From positions 59,181 to 79,180 of the forward strand of contig KE560636.1 of NCBI GenBank assembly GCA_000442015.1: a stretch of DNA of 20,000 bases, written 5' to 3'. The translations under genes were made by a program, and so were the position numbers. Below are positions 2,375 to 12,978 of the stretch, in pieces; within the stretch, counting starts at the first letter, position 1; the number at the start of each line of letters is the position of its first letter. The notes beneath the pieces were generated by a model. It did not search any database and was not told where the DNA came from. It was given only the letters and a program-made list of their open reading frames with translations. The stretch comes from Rozella allomycis CSF55 (Eukaryota).

Positions 2375-4361
2375 ATGGATACTCTAGATTATTTAAAATT
2401 GTATTTCAATGAAATCAAAGAAGAAAAACTCTTAGTACAAGAAGAAAAGGTTAAAGAACAATTATTCGACACAGTCCTCAAAGAATACCCCAAACTCAAA
2501 AGAGTCGTAGAAAGTGTTCAAGTTCTAAAAGACCACATATCATTTCTTAAATCCAAAAGACTTGAAAATATATCCATCATCAAGGTAATACTATCTATTC
2601 GCTCAAACAGCCACTTTATGAAAGACTCTCAGAGGAAAGACAGTTACTTGAACAATTGCGAAAACAAAAAATGCAAATAGAAAAAGAAAAAGAAAAGACT
2701 GTAATCATGATAAAGTTGGAAATGTTGCTCAATGATATTATTGTATCAAGTGATATCAACAGAATTGTTACATGCATGTTACAGATAAAGAGAATACTAA
2801 AGCAGTACAATATAGAAACTCAATCATTTGACTTTGTAATTATTACATATTTGTATTATAGAAACTAAAGGAGGCTAAAGAAAAGACCACGAAACAATTG
2901 GTAGTCTTGTTTGTTAAAGACCCATCGTCAGCCATTAAATATGCCAGTCTTTGTGATTTAATGGATTGTCTATACGACAGATTTAGGGATTACAGGTTCA
3001 AACCGTTTATTAAAAAGTACCTGGATGTCAAAAAAATGGATTCCAATTCCCTTGAAATTCTTTTACAAAAAATTATAGAATTCTTAAACGAGAATCACTT
3101 TAAGGAAATCCAGGAGACTATTTCTAAAGTCAAAAATGCATCTTTTATTGTTTATTCAATTCTTCCTACTTTGGTATCCACACTAATTCAACGACACAAT
3201 TCAATATTTCTTCCTGGAATACCATCCAAATTTCATCAAGTACTTCAATTCTATTCTTTAAATGTAGAATTATAAGCTAATAAATCAATTTATTGATGAT
3301 TTGAAAAGAATTGCTGCGAATGAGGATGAATTAAAGTTGATTAACGAGTCAGCATGTTTAACCGATTTGCTATTAAAATTTAACACTGGAATATATTTTC
3401 AAATTTTATATAATGATATTGTAGCCGAATTAGAAGAAGTCTTTGGAATGCCATCAATCCCGCCACCTTTGGAAGCATACGATATAGAACAAGACGAAAG
3501 ATTTCATTTCTCTGCTTCAACAAGATATCTTTCATCTTTGAACAAAATTTGGAGCGATAAATATTTTATTGGCCGACAAAAGGATATGTTCTGGAAGCTA
3601 ACGATGCAAGTAAATAATTTGAACAATTACAATGTAGATGAACCTGAGGTATAAAATGTGGGTAGAATCACAATCCTTTCAAGTACCATAAATAATATTT
3701 TATTCTAGGATTTGAAAGGCAATGTAGCCCTGTACTTTGATGCTAAATCTGTTCCTCTACTTGCCCAGCATATATTCGAAAAAGATATATCCGGTCATTT
3801 ACCAATGGAACATAAAGAAGACTTTTCAGTTGCTTTTAAAAATACAATTATGCTTAACGTCAATGTCGAATCCAAAATATTAGAGTGTCTGTTATATTCT
3901 GCCAGCCAAAATATTGAGCAAGTGAAAACCTTGCCAAACATTTATAGAGGAAACAACAAAGCGGTAATGCATTAATTATTTTAAATTAGTAGATGCCAAC
4001 AGAAAGTTCAGATTTCTTGTTATCGTTTTTTGAGCCTTTCCTCACATTTGAAACTACTTACAAGAATGTCATTCAAATTAGCTCTTTTGCTTTAGACTAT
4101 TGCAGGAATTTGATTCCATTATATTGCGAAGCCATCGATAAAGTATTGAAATCCATAAAAATCGCAGAAGAAAGTATAAGGAAATTAAGGAAGGTTAAAA
4201 CGACATCTTTTCATTCAGATGAAGACAAAATTAAAATGCAAATAACTTTAGATATTGATCATTTAATTCAACTTATAACCGCCAAACTTGGTGATCAAGG
4301 AAGGTCTTTTGATTTTAATCAGTTAATTGAGTTGAAAAATTTGATTACCAACAATGTATAA
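2375..4361 (+). CDS. COG2: Conserved oligomeric Golgi complex subunit 2 (COG2), divergent, about 607 aa
   Basis: Spliced motifs IFLPGIPSKFHQ|NY, FNTGIYFQI, FWKLTMQ|MNLRY, IYRGNNKA|MPTESS and SDEDKIKMQITLDI resemble the COG2 C-terminal domain. Phase-0 introns 2585-2610, 2836-2861, 3240-3267, 3610-3637, 3683-3708, 3964-3992. Confidence 0.8.
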
Positions 4362-4452
4362 ATAAACAATATTTAAATTATCTTGCATTAATGCTCGAAT
4401 GGGAGATCGTCACATTGCTAACGTTGAAATATATTTGAAAACGATAGAATGA

Positions 4453-4590
4453 TAGGTCATGCAATTGAGGTTCTCTTGAAACACCTCATGGAACATTACC
4501 TACAGTGTTATATATCCGAATGTCAAATGTAGACGAAATACTATCACTTTTATAATTCACTTGCTACATTCGTGCGTGGAGAAAGAAAAG
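4453..4590 (+). repeat. Copy 1 of a diverged direct duplication of an upstream (promoter-like) region
   Basis: Blocks TAGGTCATG..TTGAGGTT..CCTCAT.GAA, TATATCCGAATGT and CAAATGTAGACGAAA recur in the same order at 5061-5250. Confidence 0.85.
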
Positions 4591-4613
4591 GCACAATTAA
4601 CTAAATTAACTTA

Positions 4614-5013
4614 ATGAATATTAGTATTTTCTCTATTACCATCTTGAATATCAGATATGTGCTTCACATGGATTATACTTTTTACTTCGCGCTCATACAC
4701 CCACGGAGATAATCAGTCAACCTCAACTTCGCGTACGCTTGGAGGTAGCATATTGGGCACGAAACTACTATTGGATAAGGATAAGAGAATATCAATAGGC
4801 CTTGAATCGATGACGATGAACTTTGCAAAAGAGGTTGGAGAAGAACTATATCGGGAGGTATATATGTTTAATTCGCAACTTGATTTTGACGAGGCTTCAG
4901 TGGTAAATGGCGAGGCCTATTACTACTCTCTTAGTTATTGGACTGAATTGTCGGATGATGAATTAAATGTTTGCTTGGATTCTCTTAGTCGAATCGAATC
5001 TCCAAGTTCATGA
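4614..5013 (+). CDS. Small orphan protein with possible signal peptide; candidate truncated paralog of the downstream HECT gene
   Basis: ORF 4657-5013. An ATG at 4614 plus a 31-nt GT-AG intron (4624-4654) extends it in frame to MNINMCFTWIILFTSRSYTHG. C-terminal SDDELNVCLDSLSRIE resembles SDEELYFAVRSLVQIE of the next gene. ATTAAA lies about 10 nt after the stop. Confidence 0.5.
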
Positions 5014-5060
5014 AACCATTTTAATTAAAAAAATTTATAGTGATATAGATTTGTTAAAAT

Positions 5061-5250
5061 TAGGTCATGAATTTGAGGTTCACTTGGAGCGCCTCATTGA
5101 ATATAACTTTGTCAAGTAATCGACTCTTCTTAATTATACCGTTGTCCAGTATATATCCGAATGTACCCTAATCTCCAAATGTAGACGAAAGATTACTATT
5201 TTCGTTCTTCACGTGTCCTTCTTAAAACGTTTAACCCACGTGAAGAATAA
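5061..5250 (+). repeat. Copy 2 of the duplicated upstream region, directly 5' of the HECT gene
   Basis: Collinear matches to 4453-4590 with insertions. Confidence 0.85.
5205..5247. promoter_or_regulatory. Perfect 11-bp inverted repeat with a CACGTG (E-box) in each arm
   Basis: TTCTTCACGTG (5205-5215), 21-nt spacer containing AAACGTTT, CACGTGAAGAA (5237-5247), ending 15 nt before ATG 5263. The regulatory role is inferred. Confidence 0.5.
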
Positions 5251-5262
5251 GCCTTTTCATTG

Positions 5263-7326
5263 ATGCAAGTTCTAATATTCCTAACTATTCTTTCTTCCTT
5301 TTATATTGTGTGTTGGAGTCTATTTAATGAGGATGATCAAGTCATGGTGAGGTTTCCATTACCAGATTCAAACAAATTTGCGTACCTTACAGTGCGAATT
5401 ACAAGAAGCCAGAATAGCTTGGGATCGAAGTCTAGAAATATTGCATTTTATCCGATAAATTACGATTTTCCACCATATGAAGAGATTGTGAGATCTTTTG
5501 ATATAAGACTTGTCCGTGATAGCATACAACTTCGCTATCGTGAGAGTGATGAATCTGAAGACACATATTTGACTGTTAATGGAAAATGCCAATTTGTAGC
5601 TCGCACTGATAGGTTTGGAAGAGGAGGTCATTTTGAACTGATTAGTAGCGAAAATGAAACCTTTTATAGACTGAAAGTCAAAAATAGAATGAAGTTTCTA
5701 AAGGCAAAGCCCAACGGGTCGTCAGTCAATGAATTAGTCCCTTCTTTGTCGTCATATAGAAGCGAACAACAGGACAAATACTTTTTTCAAATTGTTCCTA
5801 TAAAAACTAAGGTCATGGTAGAAAGGAGGTTTCCTATTCTAAGTAGGCAGCATCGCAACAGACCGTCAATGGGAGAGTCAATTGCAACACTTGCCTCAGA
5901 TAACAACGAAAGTTTGACTCCAGGTGCAACACAAACATTTATTGGTCAATCACCACCTGGGTCAAGCACAGTTGAACAAATTTTGGAAAATACTCAAGAT
6001 GAAGACGTAATAAATTCAGAACCAGGCTCGTTGTTGACTTCGATCCCAAGTTCAAGTTTAACTATGAGTGATTATAGTGATTATAATGACACGATTCAAG
6101 AGATGGAAGGGCACAATAATGAATGGTTGACGGATGATTCTTCTGATGAGGAACTATACTTCGCTGTCAGGTCCCTTGTTCAAATAGAACAACAAATAGT
6201 TTATATACTACCATTGGTTATTGATAGAACCGATATTATAGGGCCTTTGAAAAGAGAAATAACTGAAACACTCAAATTTCTGCAGAGTCACGCAGGGTAT
6301 AATTCACGGAAGTTGAATTTACGAGTCAAATTTAATGGGGAAATGGGACAAGATTTGGGTGGATTAACAAAGTAACTAGATTATACTAACCAAATTAAAG
6401 ATCTTATCTTACCCTTCTTGGCGAACATTTTCTATCACTTCCTAACTTTCTCATCAAATCGGAATCCGGGTTTTACTATCCAGCTGGGGGATACCGTGAT
6501 AAAGACATGCTGATTTTATTGGGTGTTTACATCGCGTTATCTCTTCATCATGAATTGCCTTTAGTTTTTAATATTTCTCCTTCTTTCATCAATCTGATGA
6601 CTGATGAAAATTACATGCCATCTTTATATGATGTATTAGTAGAAGAGCCTAGTACATATAAGTGGATAATTAATTTTTTGACGTAATAACGATTTACCCG
6701 CAATTTAGTCAAAATGTCGAGACTCCATTTAGTTTGGACATTGGAGAAAAAGAAGTTTTTGTTGATGAACAGTCAAAGCACACAGTGGCCAGGTAAGAAA
6801 GGTGTTAATGGTATATAACACAGGGAATACGTCAAATGGCTATTGAAAGACCAGATCGTCGATAGTGCCAAAATAGTTGCCAAAGGATTGAAGTTTATGA
6901 TACCTAGTGTTTTTACAAAATTTTCTGATCAATTGAATTCAATAAATATTGAAAGGGAAATTAACATTGAAGAACTGAAGAAAGTTACTATATATGATGA
7001 TTATACTGCTTTTGATTCCACAATAATATCATTTTGGCGAGTAATAAACTATTCTTTATTTTAAAAGTACATGGCAGAAGCCGAAAATAGCAAAAGACAA
7101 AAGGTTCTCAAGTTTATCACAGGAATGACACATATTCCAAAGGAGGGCATAATGATTAAGAAATGCTCAGACATTAATCGATTCCCAGCTGCACATACTT
7201 GGTAAAGATTTATTTTACAATCAAATTAGCAACAACGGTTTCGATTTGCCAGAATATTTGGACTACGAAACACTCAAATATAAATTAGATGAAGCGATCG
7301 AACAAAATACATTTGGATTAATGTAG
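5263..7326 (+). CDS. HECT-domain E3 ubiquitin ligase with N-terminal signal peptide-like segment and beta-trefoil-like domain, 640 aa spliced
   Basis: Introns 6372-6400, 6683-6708, 6793-6823, 7041-7067, 7202-7229 give a 1923-nt open frame. HECT motifs LRVKFNGEMGQDLGGLTK, IISFWR, KVLKFITG, RFPAAHTCNNGFDLPEY (catalytic Cys) and terminal FGLM* (-4 Phe). N-terminus is MQVLIFLTILSSFYIVCWS. Confidence 0.92.
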
Positions 7327-7338
7327 AATAAATTTATT
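7327..7338. terminator. Palindromic bidirectional poly(A) signal AATAAATTTATT between convergent genes
   Basis: AATAAA on + (7327-7332) directly after the HECT stop, and AATAAA on - (7333-7338) 14 nt past the eIF2B-alpha stop. Confidence 0.6.
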
Positions 7339-7352
7339 ATATGGTTCATGAT

Positions 7353-8481
7353 TTAATAGTAAAGTTTGATCAATTCGTCAGATACTCCAGAGGGTGTCAG
7401 AACCCCAATGTCTGTAAATAGTAAGGTTATGTACGCTGGAGGAGTGTAGTCCAACAATGGACTAGCTAAATCCTATTATTCAAACAAATGTAGCATTACT
7501 TCCTTTTTTATAATTGGATCATTCATCATTTGATTTGAAAATGTTCTATAGCTTAAACTGGTCGGAGTCCCGGTGGATAGCTCAGATTGGCTCAAAGGAA
7601 ACAAGCGAACAAACTTGAATGATTCCGCTACGGCGTAAAATGGTTTATTTGCCGCTTTGGCCATAACTGAGATTAGGTATGTCCCAATCTAATATTAATG
7701 TTCAATAGTAAAAGCTACCTGATTGATCAAACCCCCATTTTCCACAAAGCCTTCGGCACCAACTAATACCATGTCGATAGATTCCATATAATAGCCGACA
7801 GCCGAATCCAAAATGACTTTGACTGGGATTCCTGCCTTACGTAAAATTTCCGCGGATGATATTCTAAATATCACTGAAAGTCAAATTCAGTTACCCTGAA
7901 CATCCAGGCCTAGCTTCAGTGACATAAACGGTAAATCTTTTGTTGGCAGCAGCAGCCTTCAATAGTACCAAAGTAACAACTCTTGAATATGAGTGAATTA
8001 AAATGTTCTATCCTTAAAAATATTATCGCTTACAGTTCCATCGCGGATAAAATTCAATGCTGATTGAGCAATTTTTTGCCTACACATTGACGCCTTTTGC
8101 TCAAACTTGCTTCCTCTTTCATAAAGTCTCTTTTTGCACTTTTCAAATTCCTTTTCTTTTATTAAATATTATACATACAATAAAGTCTGTTGCTGTTCTG
8201 GTAACGAAACGGAGAAACAACTCGCACCCAGCTGAAACTGATACAGCGTCATTAAAATGTCTTTTCAAACTTTCCACTGATTTTTCTATTTCTTGAATAA
8301 ATTCTGCCATTGTATTCGCTATTCCAGATTTAAATATTTTTTACCTTTGGATGTTGGAATGAGCTCAGAGAGAGCTTTAATAGCAGCAACAGGCACAGAC
8401 AAGTCTTGATCTGTCTGTAATAAATTTTCAAAGTGCTTTATGACTTCTAGTCTGGTGAAAAAATATTTCTTTACCTGCCAT
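7353..8481 (-). CDS. GCN3: Translation initiation factor eIF2B subunit alpha
   Basis: Spliced motifs [90 protein letters not shown]. Introns 8447-8474, 8319-8344, 8151-8178, 8008-8033, 7864-7894, 7689-7718, 7473-7499. Confidence 0.96.
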
Positions 8482-8630: not shown

Positions 8631-11600
8631 ATGACGGATGAGGCAGGTATTTAAATATGGCAAAATTAAAAGATATCCATAAACAGGCAGCCAAGATTCT
8701 GGCGCATCCTTCAATGAAAAGTGCCAAAGATATCCCTATCGTGAGAAGACGGTCTCTGATTGATCCGACGAGGGCGCCATCCACAAGAAGAAAGCTTATA
8801 TCCCAGCCAGTAGACAAAAAAGACGAAACGAGGTTCCATCCATGGAAATGGTTTTCGTATTTGATTACATTTTGGGCCCCGCCATTTGCTCTGAGGCTGT
8901 GTGGCAAAAGAGATAAAGCAACTCAACAGGGTTTTAGAGAAAAGATTGCATTGTGTTTTATCATCTTAATCCTTTGTGCAGCTGTTGCCTTTCTTACATT
9001 CGGCTTGCAAAGAACGCTGTGCCCACCTAGTGAAAGTTCAGAAAGCCGGAAAAGAGTATCATCATTTGTTAATAACCCTGGGCCGTTTGTATCTGTGTTT
9101 GGAAATGTGTATGCAATGTCTGATATATCCAACATTGCTAATGATCCGAATTTTCCGTTTAGTCAGATTGGAACTGATTTAACATTGTATTTTCCACCTT
9201 CTCCGGATATTTGTAATCAATCGCCTACTGTTGCTGGATCTTTTAAGTTTCCGTGTTCTGGCAGTCAATGTATGGATAGAAATTTGTTACAAGGATTAAA
9301 AACAAACGCCCTATTCTTTTTATGGGCTGATATTTCTAAAAATTATATAGTNTCCTACTGTTGCTGGGTCTTTTAAGTTTCCGTGTTCTGGCAGTCAATG
9401 TATGGATAGAAATTTGTTGCAAGGATTAAAGACAAACGCCCTATTCTTTTTATGGGCTGATATTTCTAAAAATTATATAGTGTACAATGGAGAAGTGATG
9501 GACATGTCATCATATGTTAGTCAAGGGAATCAGTTCTTGGGGCCTGTTGTTAATGATTTAATTTTGAAGAATTTAGGGAAAGATGTTACTGTTGCCTTGA
9601 AAAGGTTGGATCAGTCTGGAAGAACCGCAAAGTGCTTGGTGCAAACCTTTAAAGTGGGGAATGTTGATAAAGAGACTAGAGGTTGTTTTGCAGCACAATT
9701 AATAATGATGATATCTTTAGTTATTATTGTATGTGTGATAATTGTGAGGTTTCTCATGGCTGTTACATTTGATTGGTTTATGAGTAGCCAGTTGGATAAG
9801 TTTTCTAGAGACAAAGTAGCCAAACAAAATGCACAAAGAATGTCAAGGTATACATTGCCTAAAGCCAATAGAATGTCTGTTGTTAGTAATAAAACAAATA
9901 GCAAATATTTTCCACAAATTGATTTTGACTTTGACGATGATCCGTTTGTAGTTTTGCTGGTTACTTGTTATTCTGAAGGCGAAGAATCAATAAGGTCGAC
10001 CATTGAATCTTTGGCGGAGACAGACTATCAAGACAAGCGTAAATTGTTATTTATTATTGCTGATGGGTTGATTACAGGATCAGGGAATCCAAAGAGCACT
10101 CCTGACACCATTTTAGATATGATTGACATTGATGATGCATTTCCTGAACCGATTCCAATGTCATATTCAGCTGTTGCTGATGGATCTAAACAACATAACA
10201 TGGCAAAAGTTTATATTGGAGAATTCAAGTCACGTGGGCATGTAGTGCCAGTCATTGTTGTTGTAAAGTGTGGTACCCCTGAAGAATCCAAATTACCAAA
10301 ACCAGGAAATAGAGGGAAAAGAGATTCTCAGTTAATTTTAATGAACTTTTTTCAAAAAGTTTTGTTTGATGATAGAATGTGCCCACTTGAATATGAAATG
10401 TTTACAAAGTTGCATTACTTGATGGGTGTGACTCCTGATAGATTTGAAATTGTTTTAATGGTTGACGCTGACACTAGAGTGTTGCCAGATTCGTTAGGGA
10501 AAATGGTCTGTGCTATGAGAAGGGATAACATGGTTATGGGATTATGCGGCGAAACAAGGTAAACTTATTGTACATTACATTATAGAATTCATAACAAGAG
10601 AACTTCATGGGTTACAAGTATTCAAGTATTTGAGTATTACATTTCTCATCATTTGGGAAAAGCATTCGAAAGTGTTTTTGGTGGTGTCACTTGTCTCCCT
10701 GGTTGTTTCTGCATGTAAAATACAAAACCATGAAATTAAAAGGTATCGAATCAAAGCATTCAAGAATGGTTCCTGGGTTCCCATTATTTCAAACCCTGAA
10801 ATCATTGAAGAATATTCTCAAAACGTTGTTCAAACCTTACATGAAAAGAATTTGCTACTTTTAGGTGAAGATAGATTCCTCACTACCTTAATGCTTAAAA
10901 CTTTCCCTCACAGAAAACTTATTTTTGTACCAAACGCTGTTTGTAAAACGTAATTGCATTATCCTTTATGTGACCAGGGTCGTCCCTGATGAATTTAAAG
11001 TTTTACTTTCTCAACGAAGAAGATGGATTAATTCAACCATTCATAATTTATTAGAGTTAGTCAGAGTTAGGGAATTGTGCGGTATTTTTTGTTTTTCAAT
11101 GCAGTTTGTTGTTTTCCTTGAACTCATCGGGACTGTCGTTCTTCCAGCCGCTATTATCTTCACCTTTGTGCTTCTTTATACTACTTTCACTACCCCAAAT
11201 CCTCAAATTATTCCATTAGCTCTACTCGGTGCTGTGCTAGGTTTACCAGCTATCTTAATCTTAATGACAACTAGAAAAGTTGTTTACATATCTTGGATGC
11301 TAACATACCTTTTAGCTCTTCCCATTTGGAACTTTGTTTTACCCGTATATGCGTATTGGCATTTCGATGATGTTAGCTGGGGTCAAACAAGAAAAGTTGA
11401 CGGTGAGGGGAAAGACGACCACGGGAAAAAAGAAGGGAAATTCAATTCAAACTCCATTCCGCTAAAACGGTGGAATGAATGGAGAAAGTATAATGATGAG
11501 CAGGGAAATTTTCATATTCAAGTGGATAAACCAACAAAGGAATTAATGAAAGAAAAGAAAGAAAAGGAGAAAAGAAAAGCTGAAATCATTTTCTTGGAGA

Positions 11601-11647: not shown

Positions 11648-11680
11648 ATTATTATTAGACTTATTATTAGAATTCAGTTC

Positions 11681-12090
11681 AAATTTAAATTCATATCCGA
11701 CTGTCGGACTTCGATAGGCGATAAGCAGGCTATTGAACAACTCCTTGGAAGTTGGATCTTTGAAAATTGAAACTGCACCAATTCCATTAAAAGGTTCATT
11801 TGTTACTTTAAATACTTTATAATGAGAATTTTTAGGCATTTGTTTCTTAAATTACACACGATTCTATTTTTGAGAACAAATGTTATAAATAAANAATAAA
11901 ATTTAAATTTATATCCGACTGTCGGACTTTGATAGCGATAAGCACTCCTTGGATATTTGAAAATTGCAACTGTACCAATTCAATTAAAAGGTTCATTTGT
12001 TACCTTAAATACTTTATAATGATAATTTTTAGGCCTTTGATTCTTAAATTACACACGATTCTATTTTTGAGAACAAATGTTATAAATAAA
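11681..12090 (+). other. Diverged duplication flanking single N 11894 (probable allelic overlap, intergenic)
   Basis: 11681-11893 vs 11899-12090, with about 10 substitutions and 3 indels counted by eye. Confidence 0.75.
11914..11926. promoter_or_regulatory. Palindrome TCCGAC-T-GTCGGA (also at 11696-11708)
   Basis: GC-rich 13-nt palindrome in AT-rich intergenic DNA, identical in both otherwise diverged copies, about 200 nt upstream of ATG 12130. Confidence 0.45.
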
Positions 12091-12129
12091 CGATGGTACA
12101 AATACGAGGAACATGCCCCGTTTCGTTTC

Positions 12130-12978
12130 ATGTACAAAACAACCGCCTTGTCTATTTTACTTGCCACCATTGTATCTGCCGGCGACTACTCTAGCAGCGA
12201 GACCCAAGTAGGAACAATAACAACATACTATGGTCCCAAATATGGGCATTTGCCAGACAGCGGCGGTGACCAAGTTGCATGTCCTGGAATTAAACCCGAC
12301 TGGCACAATGATCCGTACATGGCTGCCATTCCAGTAAGCAAATATGAAAACGGCAAGCATTGCAACAAAAAGATGAGAATTTGCAACGCCAACAATCGCT
12401 CCAAATGTGTCACGGTAAGAATAGTCGACTCGTGCGCTGGCGATGCTTGCAAAGAATTTGACTTGTCGTCTACTGCGGCTGAAGAACTCGGAGGTGATAA
12501 TATCAAAGTTGTGTATGGCCCAGCTGATGGAAGCCTTAGTGAAGAAACTGAGACTGTTTCAAAGGTACCAAAACACAATGTTTCTGCCAGTGAAACTAAG
12601 GTTTCTGCTGAAACTGTAACACCAACCGCATCTGCAACAACTACGACACCATGTCCTGAAGAAACAAGGTCAACGCAAGCATCAACTGAAGCATCAACAA
12701 CGCCATGTCCAGATGAACATGTTAGCGAAACATCAACAACACCATGCCCGGAGGAGACAACGGCAACAGAAGAGGGAAAATCTACCTCAACAACCACCCC
12801 ATGCCCAGAAGAAGATTCTTATCAAAATGATAAAGAAACTGAAAAGGGAGAAGAAAAGGAAAAGAGTACATCTGAAGTAATTGGGGACCAATTCGGAGGC
12901 TATGTAAGTGCTTCAAGCACCATTGGTTACTCAATTGTAGCGCTCTTGTCGATGTTTGTATTAAATGTTTATCAATAA
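12130..12978 (+). CDS. Secreted, probably GPI-anchored DPBB (RlpA-like/expansin-like/loosenin-type) protein with Thr/Glu-rich stalk, 282 aa, no intron needed
   Basis: Signal peptide MYKTTALSILLATIVSA. DPBB-type motifs GTITTYY, AC, YMAAIP, HCNKKMRI, CVTVRIVDSC, FDLSSTA. Four TTPCP(E/D)E repeats and hydrophobic C-tail SASSTIGYSIVALLSMFVLNVYQ. Confidence 0.85.
   Translation: MYKTTALSILLATIVSAGDYSSSETQVGTITTYYGPKYGHLPDSGGDQVACPGIKPDWHNDPYMAAIPVSKYENGKHCNKKMRICNANNRSKCVTVRIVDSCAGDACKEFDLSSTAAEELGGDNIKVVYGPADGSLSEETETVSKVPKHNVSASETKVSAETVTPTASATTTTPCPEETRSTQASTEASTTPCPDEHVSETSTTPCPEETTATEEGKSTSTTTPCPEEDSYQNDKETEKGEEKEKSTSEVIGDQFGGYVSASSTIGYSIVALLSMFVLNVYQ
12643..12813 (+). repeat. Four coding repeats TTPCP(E/D)E
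   Basis: Units start at about 12643, 12697, 12736 and 12793, with synonymous divergence. Confidence 0.9.

Follow-up and report, generated by a model that had tools for sequence, protein, structure and literature searches.

A candidate host-directed HECT ubiquitin ligase with a signal-like N-terminus encoded by the endoparasite Rozella allomycis

Rozella allomycis is an endoparasite of the water mould Allomyces. It belongs to a basal fungal lineage close to the microsporidia, and how it manipulates its host is poorly understood. In a window of 20,000 nucleotides from the genome of R. allomycis CSF55 (assembly GCA_000442015.1, contig KE560636.1, positions 59,181 to 79,180 of the forward strand; all coordinates below are those of the window), a gene at 5263-7326 on the plus strand encodes a HECT E3 ubiquitin ligase of 640 amino acids that begins with a hydrophobic leader. 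Our preferred reading, held tentatively and at somewhat less than even confidence, is that this protein would enter the secretory pathway and be exported or displayed towards the host, where it could act as a ligase only if it met host E2 charged with ubiquitin. Judged by sequence rules alone, it is a plausible, though unproven, candidate for a host-directed ligase. An earlier note, made from the letters of the same DNA, had proposed a secreted HECT ligase aimed at the host of an endoparasite. The parasitic origin turned out to be right because a database names the public protein model of the locus, hereafter P0001, as 'HECT domain-containing protein [Rozella allomycis CSF55]'.

When joined by script, the six exons of the gene, which are separated by five introns, give a frame of 1923 nt that is closed by the stop codon TAG at 7324-7326 and yields the 640-aa protein, in agreement with the spliced product described earlier. 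Exon 1 (5263..6371) encodes the leader, an orphan region (approximately residues 26-195), an acidic linker rich in Ser and Thr (approximately residues 196-300) and the start of the HECT domain. The N-lobe of the domain is encoded by exon 2 (6401..6682) and exon 3 (6709..6792), further HECT sequence follows in exon 4 (6824..7040), exon 5 (7068..7201) contributes the C-lobe and ends with the second base of the catalytic Cys codon, and exon 6 (7230..7326) holds the end of the C-lobe. The introns (6372..6400, 6683..6708, 6793..6823, 7041..7067 and 7202..7229) are 29, 26, 31, 27 and 28 nt long, respectively, and all five start with GTA and end with AG. Short introns are the rule in the window. In a survey of GT..AG joins of 15-90 nt between open reading frames (ORFs) of at least 45 aa, for which the shortest join per site was taken and two introns of the HECT gene were added, all 26 frame-joining introns measured 26-31 nt (mean 27.8 nt). 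GTA was found at the start of 25 of them and G at position -3 of the acceptor in none. Introns longer than 90 nt lay outside this survey, and no gene of the window seemed in need of one. Moreover, introns of about 30 nt have been reported for a Rozella ribosomal protein gene (PMC6349667).

A DNA contig covers 4300-7500 without a break. Two further DNA runs show minor-allele differences, six of them coding and four of these six synonymous. The minor allele occurs at 5355-5427 and 6668-6724, with four differences per bubble and about one fifth to one quarter of the depth in the two runs. In the contig of one run, an additional T follows 6564. It would cause a frameshift and probably reflects an error in that assembly. 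One RNA run under the same species label gave no contigs on 4300-7500.

The assignment to the HECT family, which the earlier note had made from the sequence, was confirmed by Pfam. In an exon-wise scan of the later exons that covered exons 2, 4, 5 and 6, the HECT profile (PF00632) was matched colinearly at positions 22-74, 144-221 (E 8.8e-6), 223-273 (E 7.7e-6) and 276-305 of 306, and exon 3 lies within the HECT match of P0001. The latter spans profile positions 24-305 of 306 with 120.6 bits versus a cut-off of 23.9 (E 1.4e-34). Among solved structures, the HECT domain of yeast Rsp5 comes first (E 7.6e-22), followed by Itch, WWP1, pub2, TOM1, HUWE1 and E6AP. In the phmmer alignment with Rsp5 (posterior accuracy 0.76), the HTC motif of the Rozella protein is aligned with the catalytic HTC, and the catalytic residue is Cys609. 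The codon of this residue is divided TG/C by intron 5 and is complete only once 7202-7229 has been removed, as the earlier note had stated. The product ends with Phe-Gly-Leu-Met-stop and thus has Phe at position -4 and a free tail, so that the previously claimed HTC motif and -4 Phe are both intact. A HECT domain requires such a short free C-terminal tail. By its domain, the context of its catalytic Cys and its free C-terminus, the product belongs to the HECT E3 ligase family. Structure prediction with AlphaFold2 gave a mean pLDDT of 33 for exon 1 alone and of 36.4 for the 718-aa P0001 with an alignment of four rows, in which only the C-lobe (approximately residues 590-685) reached 63-91.

The hydrophobic, signal-like N-terminus (codons 1-19, 5263..5319 on the plus strand) was assessed by hydropathy, charges, the position of the ATG and a shuffle control. 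The Kyte-Doolittle mean over 19 residues peaks at residues 3-21, where it reaches 2.25, the maximum of the whole protein. The second peak (residues 407-425, 1.67) is a core helix of the HECT N-lobe. The hydrophobic run itself comprises residues 3-16 and is broken by two Ser. Positions 1-22 are devoid of charged residues and there is no basic n-region, while an acidic cluster gives the 15 residues past the run a net charge of -3. According to the -3/-1 rule, small residues precede the cleavage site of a signal peptide, and the orientation of an N-terminal segment is set by the positive-inside or charge-difference rule. Directly before residue 20 stands Cys-Trp-Ser, with small residues at -3 and -1 of a possible cut after residue 19. 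Moreover, since the flanking charges are none before and -3 after the stretch, an N-in/C-out orientation is favoured under the charge-difference rule. Both rules, applied by eye, point to a signal peptide or to an anchor of the N-in/C-out type, and the HECT part would lie outside the cytosol in either case. The segment 5251-5343 (93 nt) consists of 45% T. Among 200,000 shuffles of it, 650 (0.3%) gave an open frame with a Met followed by 19 residues of a mean hydropathy of at least 1.8, and shuffled intergenic 93-mers satisfied the same definition in about 0.03% of the trials. The leader is thus unlikely to be a chance open frame because 0.3% or fewer of the shuffles match it.

The intronless gene at 12130-12978 on the plus strand, whose product is likely a surface or secreted protein, can serve as a reference from the same genome for the appearance of a signal. 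The product has a classical-looking signal, a repeat region rich in Thr, Glu, Pro and Cys and a hydrophobic C-terminal end, and it matches DPBB_1 weakly (24 bits versus a cut-off of 28.8).

The ends of the gene as given here differ from those of the public model. When 1.84 billion representative proteins were scanned with exon 1, the single match was P0001 (718 aa), and neither a relative nor a model of exon 1 was found among the collection proteins of 202-646 aa. Residues 20-639 of the 640-aa product are common to both models. P0001 starts at ATG 4864, within an orphan ORF upstream of the HECT gene, and its exons 4864-5005 and 5049-5115 are joined to the common part at 5319. The intron 5006-5048 is 43 nt long and has a GTTCAT donor; the intron 5116-5318 is 203 nt long, has a GAG acceptor, and takes out the stop codon 5117-5119, ATG 5263 and the entire hydrophobic stretch. 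At the 3' end, a 42-nt intron removes the HECT stop codon and adds 28 residues up to 7449. This addition is antisense to the last exon of the neighbouring IF-2B gene (Pfam IF-2B 255-280 of 280, E 1.2e-5). P0001 is thus wrong at least at its 3' end because the addition is antisense to IF-2B and because the HECT domain needs its short free tail. Indeed, the ends 5263 and 7326 are favoured since P0001 needs introns of 43, 203 and 42 nt as well as the antisense extension. Furthermore, the supposed exon at 5064-5107 lies in one copy of a diverged direct repeat, and the two copies differ over it at nine sites, all nine of which change an amino acid.

ATG 5263 is the first in-frame ATG past the stop codon 5248-5250, and just two tiny upstream ORFs (5161 and 5179) stand before it. 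None of the GT..AG introns of 22-36 nt joins an upstream ATG-led exon to its frame. The T at position -3 of this ATG recurs in three of the six other gene starts in the window. Two out-of-frame ATGs (5327 and 5333) precede the next in-frame ATG at 5344, which encodes Met28. With good confidence, we infer that ATG 5263 is used as the start codon.

The N-terminal part of approximately 350 residues has no relatives in the collections searched. Exon 1 matched no Pfam family above the cut-off and gave no usable match in the Protein Atlas, none of the 1992 word-sharing candidates for the N-terminal 369 aa scored, and the 135 matches to a pattern of this region in metagenome contigs contained no relative. 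A word-based search with the HECT part brought up 1604 candidates, of which four reached E <=0.001: P0001, two ant HERC4 proteins and one protein of 574 aa (P0004). The best non-self matches are therefore small HERC proteins, with 28% identity to ant HERC4. P0004 was set aside; it resembles the C-lobe only and lacks a hydrophobic start. As far as these comparisons indicate, the HECT domain is very divergent and the gene appears to be lineage-specific and fast-evolving.

In a survey of fungal ligases, Rozella was assigned six HECT genes, namely one each of RSP5, TOM1, HUL5, UFD4 and HUL4A, no HUL4, and one sequence classed as 'Other', which was interpreted as an extremely divergent HUL4; HUL4 was placed near the small HERCs (Marin 2018, PMC5913265). 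The gene described here is probably this 'Other' sequence. Like fungal HUL4 and the 'Other' protein, its product is HECT-only with no further detectable domain. The 'Other' protein is described as highly divergent, and the best database matches of the product are the small HERCs. The survey would have used the public model, which lacks the leader, and signal peptides or transmembrane segments are mentioned nowhere in it.

According to our preferred reading, a fast-evolving HECT E3 that is specific to the lineage of R. allomycis would be translated from ATG 5263, and the first 19-21 residues would act as a signal for the endoplasmic reticulum (ER). This signal would be removed by a cut after residue 19 or remain in place as an N-in/C-out anchor. 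The orphan N-terminus, the acidic linker and the compact HECT domain would thereby leave the parasite cytosol and come to lie at the parasite surface or at the interface with the host. If the host cytosol were reached, ubiquitin could be transferred from a host E2 onto Cys609 and passed to host targets, which the orphan N-terminal region would choose. The life of Rozella as an unwalled intracellular plasmodium (PMC6317583) fits the preferred reading, and the signal-bearing HECT proteins predicted in Pythium are a precedent for it. A bolder version, which we consider unlikely, is that Rozella exports a canonical eukaryotic HECT into its fungal host, that the ligase is charged by host E2 and that host ubiquitination is rewired. 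If true, this would be the first demonstrated HECT effector secreted from one eukaryote to another; the adjoining small orphan ORF, which shares a duplicated upstream element, would then hint at a co-regulated infection module.

Several observations weigh against export towards the host. The start and the junctions are predictions from DNA, and the sole public model joins an upstream exon to residue 20 and thereby removes the leader. Codon usage is of no help, since the log-odds score of codons 1-27 (+1.05 bits) is equalled or exceeded in 33% of the open wrong-frame windows and thus supports nothing; the same test gave +9.95 for the antisense 3' extension of P0001. With five N-x-S/T sequons and only four Cys, the protein is unlike a classical secreted one. 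A HECT ligase depends on E1, E2, ubiquitin and ATP for catalysis, and these are not available in the secretory lumen. A housekeeping origin would also fit because Rozella is without a canonical HUL4 and its unclassed HECT has been read as a divergent one. Moreover, according to a review of Rozella, the protoplast of the parasite occupies a compartment at which the plasma membrane of the host is invaginated (PMC6317583). Secretion alone need not mean delivery to the host cytosol, since the parasite lies in this compartment and a further membrane would perhaps have to be crossed. The interface between host and parasite is reportedly made up of three membranes, as described by Powell et al. in 2017. 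Thus, the proposal of a secreted host-targeted HECT stands in part. It is supported by the gene model, the HECT motifs, a leader that is not expected by chance and charges of the N-in/C-out kind, but it is weakened by the sole public model, which drops the leader, and by the possibility of an anchor; the idea is also not new, as it has been put forward for Pythium.

Three other explanations have to be weighed against export and display. If ATG 5263 is used, the leader could be an uncleaved anchor, with a short N-terminal end outside and the HECT domain in the parasite cytosol, and the protein would be a housekeeping membrane ligase acting on parasite proteins. There is a precedent for such an arrangement in human AREL1, an ER-resident HECT ligase whose transmembrane (TM) segment lies at the extreme N-terminus and whose remaining part is cytosolic (PMC12864862). 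AREL1 shares the layout of the Rozella protein: a hydrophobic segment at the N-terminal end is followed by a region without catalytic function, by a stretch that is disordered or of low complexity, and finally by the HECT domain. Moreover, a hydropathy of 2.25 over the 19 residues 3-21 is sufficient for a stable, uncleaved membrane anchor, the uncharged run of 22 residues would equally allow a TM helix, and no additional step would be needed to meet E1, E2 and ubiquitin. We nevertheless regard this explanation as unlikely. The acidic cluster right after the stretch, with no basic residue nearby, speaks against a cytosolic C-side under the positive-inside rule, the flanking charges point the opposite way to the cytosolic bulk of AREL1, and the hydrophobic core is short for a TM helix and interrupted by two Ser. 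No sequence relation to AREL1 was seen outside the HECT domain, and orthology was rejected: exon 1 has no Pfam family, the 1.84 billion representatives contained only the gene's own model, and AREL1 is not among the 60 best solved chains listed.

A signal would be absent altogether if the mRNA were as in P0001 or if translation began downstream at Met28, in which case the gene would encode an ordinary, highly divergent HUL4-like ligase of the cytosol or the nucleus. Indeed, the protein collections searched contain no model of the locus other than P0001, G stands at both -3 and +4 of ATG 5344, and the T content of the leader segment favours hydrophobic codons. The reading of the unclassed Rozella HECT as a divergent HUL4 points in the same direction, as do the best non-self matches to HERC4, a member of a group near HUL4 (PMC5913265). 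This explanation appears rather improbable, however, because the introns of P0001 fall outside the 26-31 nt of all 26 surveyed introns and its GAG acceptor is seen in none of them, the model is clearly wrong at its 3' end, and the nine differences between the repeat copies all alter the protein. In addition, the out-of-frame ATGs 5327 and 5333 precede Met28, and at most 0.3% of the shuffles yield an open frame that starts with Met and encodes a hydrophobic leader. It is also conceivable, but we consider it quite improbable, that the protein is exported and never reaches the host cytosol. It would remain at the parasite surface, in the lumen of the compartment or in food vacuoles, and the HECT domain would be inactive or only briefly active on engulfed material. 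The compartment and the engulfing of host cytoplasm via lobed extensions (PMC6317583; PMC10953367) are in line with this explanation, and visual inspection of the sequence behind the leader revealed no known host-translocation motif. However, the HTC motif, the -4 Phe and a full HECT match have been kept, which argues for selection on catalysis and hence for a charged E2, and constraint is weakly indicated by the minor alleles, in which four of the six coding differences are synonymous.

HECT proteins with a predicted N-terminal signal are a known kind since such cases were predicted for the oomycete Pythium ultimum in 2010. There, 16 of 56 HECT proteins were found by SignalP to carry a signal peptide and 10 of 56 a signal anchor, and the authors discussed the signal-bearing proteins as possible secreted effectors (Levesque et al. 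2010, PMC2926784). In both organisms, a true eukaryotic HECT of a eukaryotic pathogen is predicted to have an N-terminal signal, and both cases are predictions. However, the Pythium proteins belong to an expanded family that is said to be orthologous to plant UPL1 and UPL2, whereas the case described here is one gene of a cryptomycotan fungus that lives unwalled inside its host, with an orphan N-terminus and a HECT domain nearest to Rsp5/NEDD4 and the small HERCs. Members of the Rsp5/NEDD4 family (5hpl, 3olm, 4lcd, 3tug and 1nd7) are the best solved matches (E 7.6e-22 to about 1e-17), which include both lobes and the aligned HTC motif. Unlike them, the Rozella protein has neither C2 nor WW domains, and the alignment covers 286 of its residues versus 323 of the Rsp5 chain, with both sequences containing gaps. 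The bacterial effectors SopA and NleL are secreted by type III systems, resemble HECT ligases in their bilobed layout only and use host E2. They share with the Rozella protein the idea of a Cys-dependent E3 that is delivered by a pathogen and works with host E2. In contrast, the Rozella protein is a canonical eukaryotic HECT (PF00632) with an ER-type leader, and neither SopA nor NleL is among the 60 chains listed.

A literature search for Rozella and HECT yielded the survey by Marin (2018) as the sole relevant paper and nothing on a signal-bearing HECT in Rozella, and a phrase search that included 'secreted HECT' returned no papers. If the protein is indeed a secreted true HECT ligase, it would be a concrete and testable effector candidate in Rozella. 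It would also give experimental meaning to the oomycete HECTs with signal peptides, which have been predicted since 2010 and are presented as predictions only in the available passages of PMC2926784. Secretome surveys based on the public annotation would have missed the gene because P0001 hides the leader behind atypical introns. The three out-of-range introns of P0001 suggest that the annotation of Rozella may need a prior on intron length, and a re-annotation with the real intron size of 26-31 nt might uncover more such cases.

The surroundings of the gene agree in part with the earlier description, which placed it between COG2 and eIF2B-alpha. A COG2 gene (COG2_C; 3268-4361, plus strand, stop codon 4359-4361) lies upstream and a gene of the IF-2B family (7356-8168, minus strand, stop codon 7353-7355) downstream, but approximately 900 nt with a further orphan ORF separate the COG2 stop codon from ATG 5263. 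The stop codon of the HECT gene (7324-7326) and that of the convergent IF-2B gene are 26 nt apart, and the 3' ends of both genes must therefore nearly touch or overlap. The orphan ORF of approximately 120 aa (4614/4657..5013, plus strand) starts either at ATG 4614, joined via a canonical 31-nt intron (4624-4654), or at ATG 4657. Its product has a short hydrophobic start and an acidic end, and P0001 takes its exon 1 from the 3' part of this ORF. No relative was found in Pfam or the PDB, and in the Protein Atlas it scored at most 0.87, and only to bacterial hypothetical clusters. The proteins encoded by this ORF and by the N-terminal part of the HECT gene are not similar (best BLASTP E 10).

The diverged direct repeat mentioned above precedes both the orphan ORF (copy 1, 4453-4563) and the HECT gene (copy 2, 5061..5215), on the plus strand, and consists of blocks of 47, 15 and 40 nt with 81%, 100% and 75% identity, respectively. 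Copy 2 contains a TATATAT run at 5150, and both 15-nt core motifs of the repeat are commoner than in any of 200 shuffles. The repeat may be a duplicated promoter. It does not correspond to a known RNA, as an Rfam search of 4300-5400 gave only a sub-threshold match to a miRNA family (25.9 bits versus a gathering score of 100). CACGTG boxes are present at 5210 and 5237, at most 55 nt upstream of ATG 5263; they are degenerate in the repeat copy at 4453-4563, and the only other box in the 20-kb window is located at 10231.

The window also carries genes for a chitin synthase, a kinesin, an adaptin, a CBF/Mak21 protein and a porin. A single N occurs at 9352, 11894, 13144 and 18310, and the flanks of three of these positions were compared. 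At 9352, 11894 and 18310, the N is enclosed by near-duplicate sequences, as exemplified by approximately 11680-11893 versus 11898-12110 and by peptide stretches that recur near 9352 and 18310 in the list of ORFs. These near-duplicates have the appearance of contig overlaps that were left unmerged, not of genuine repeats.

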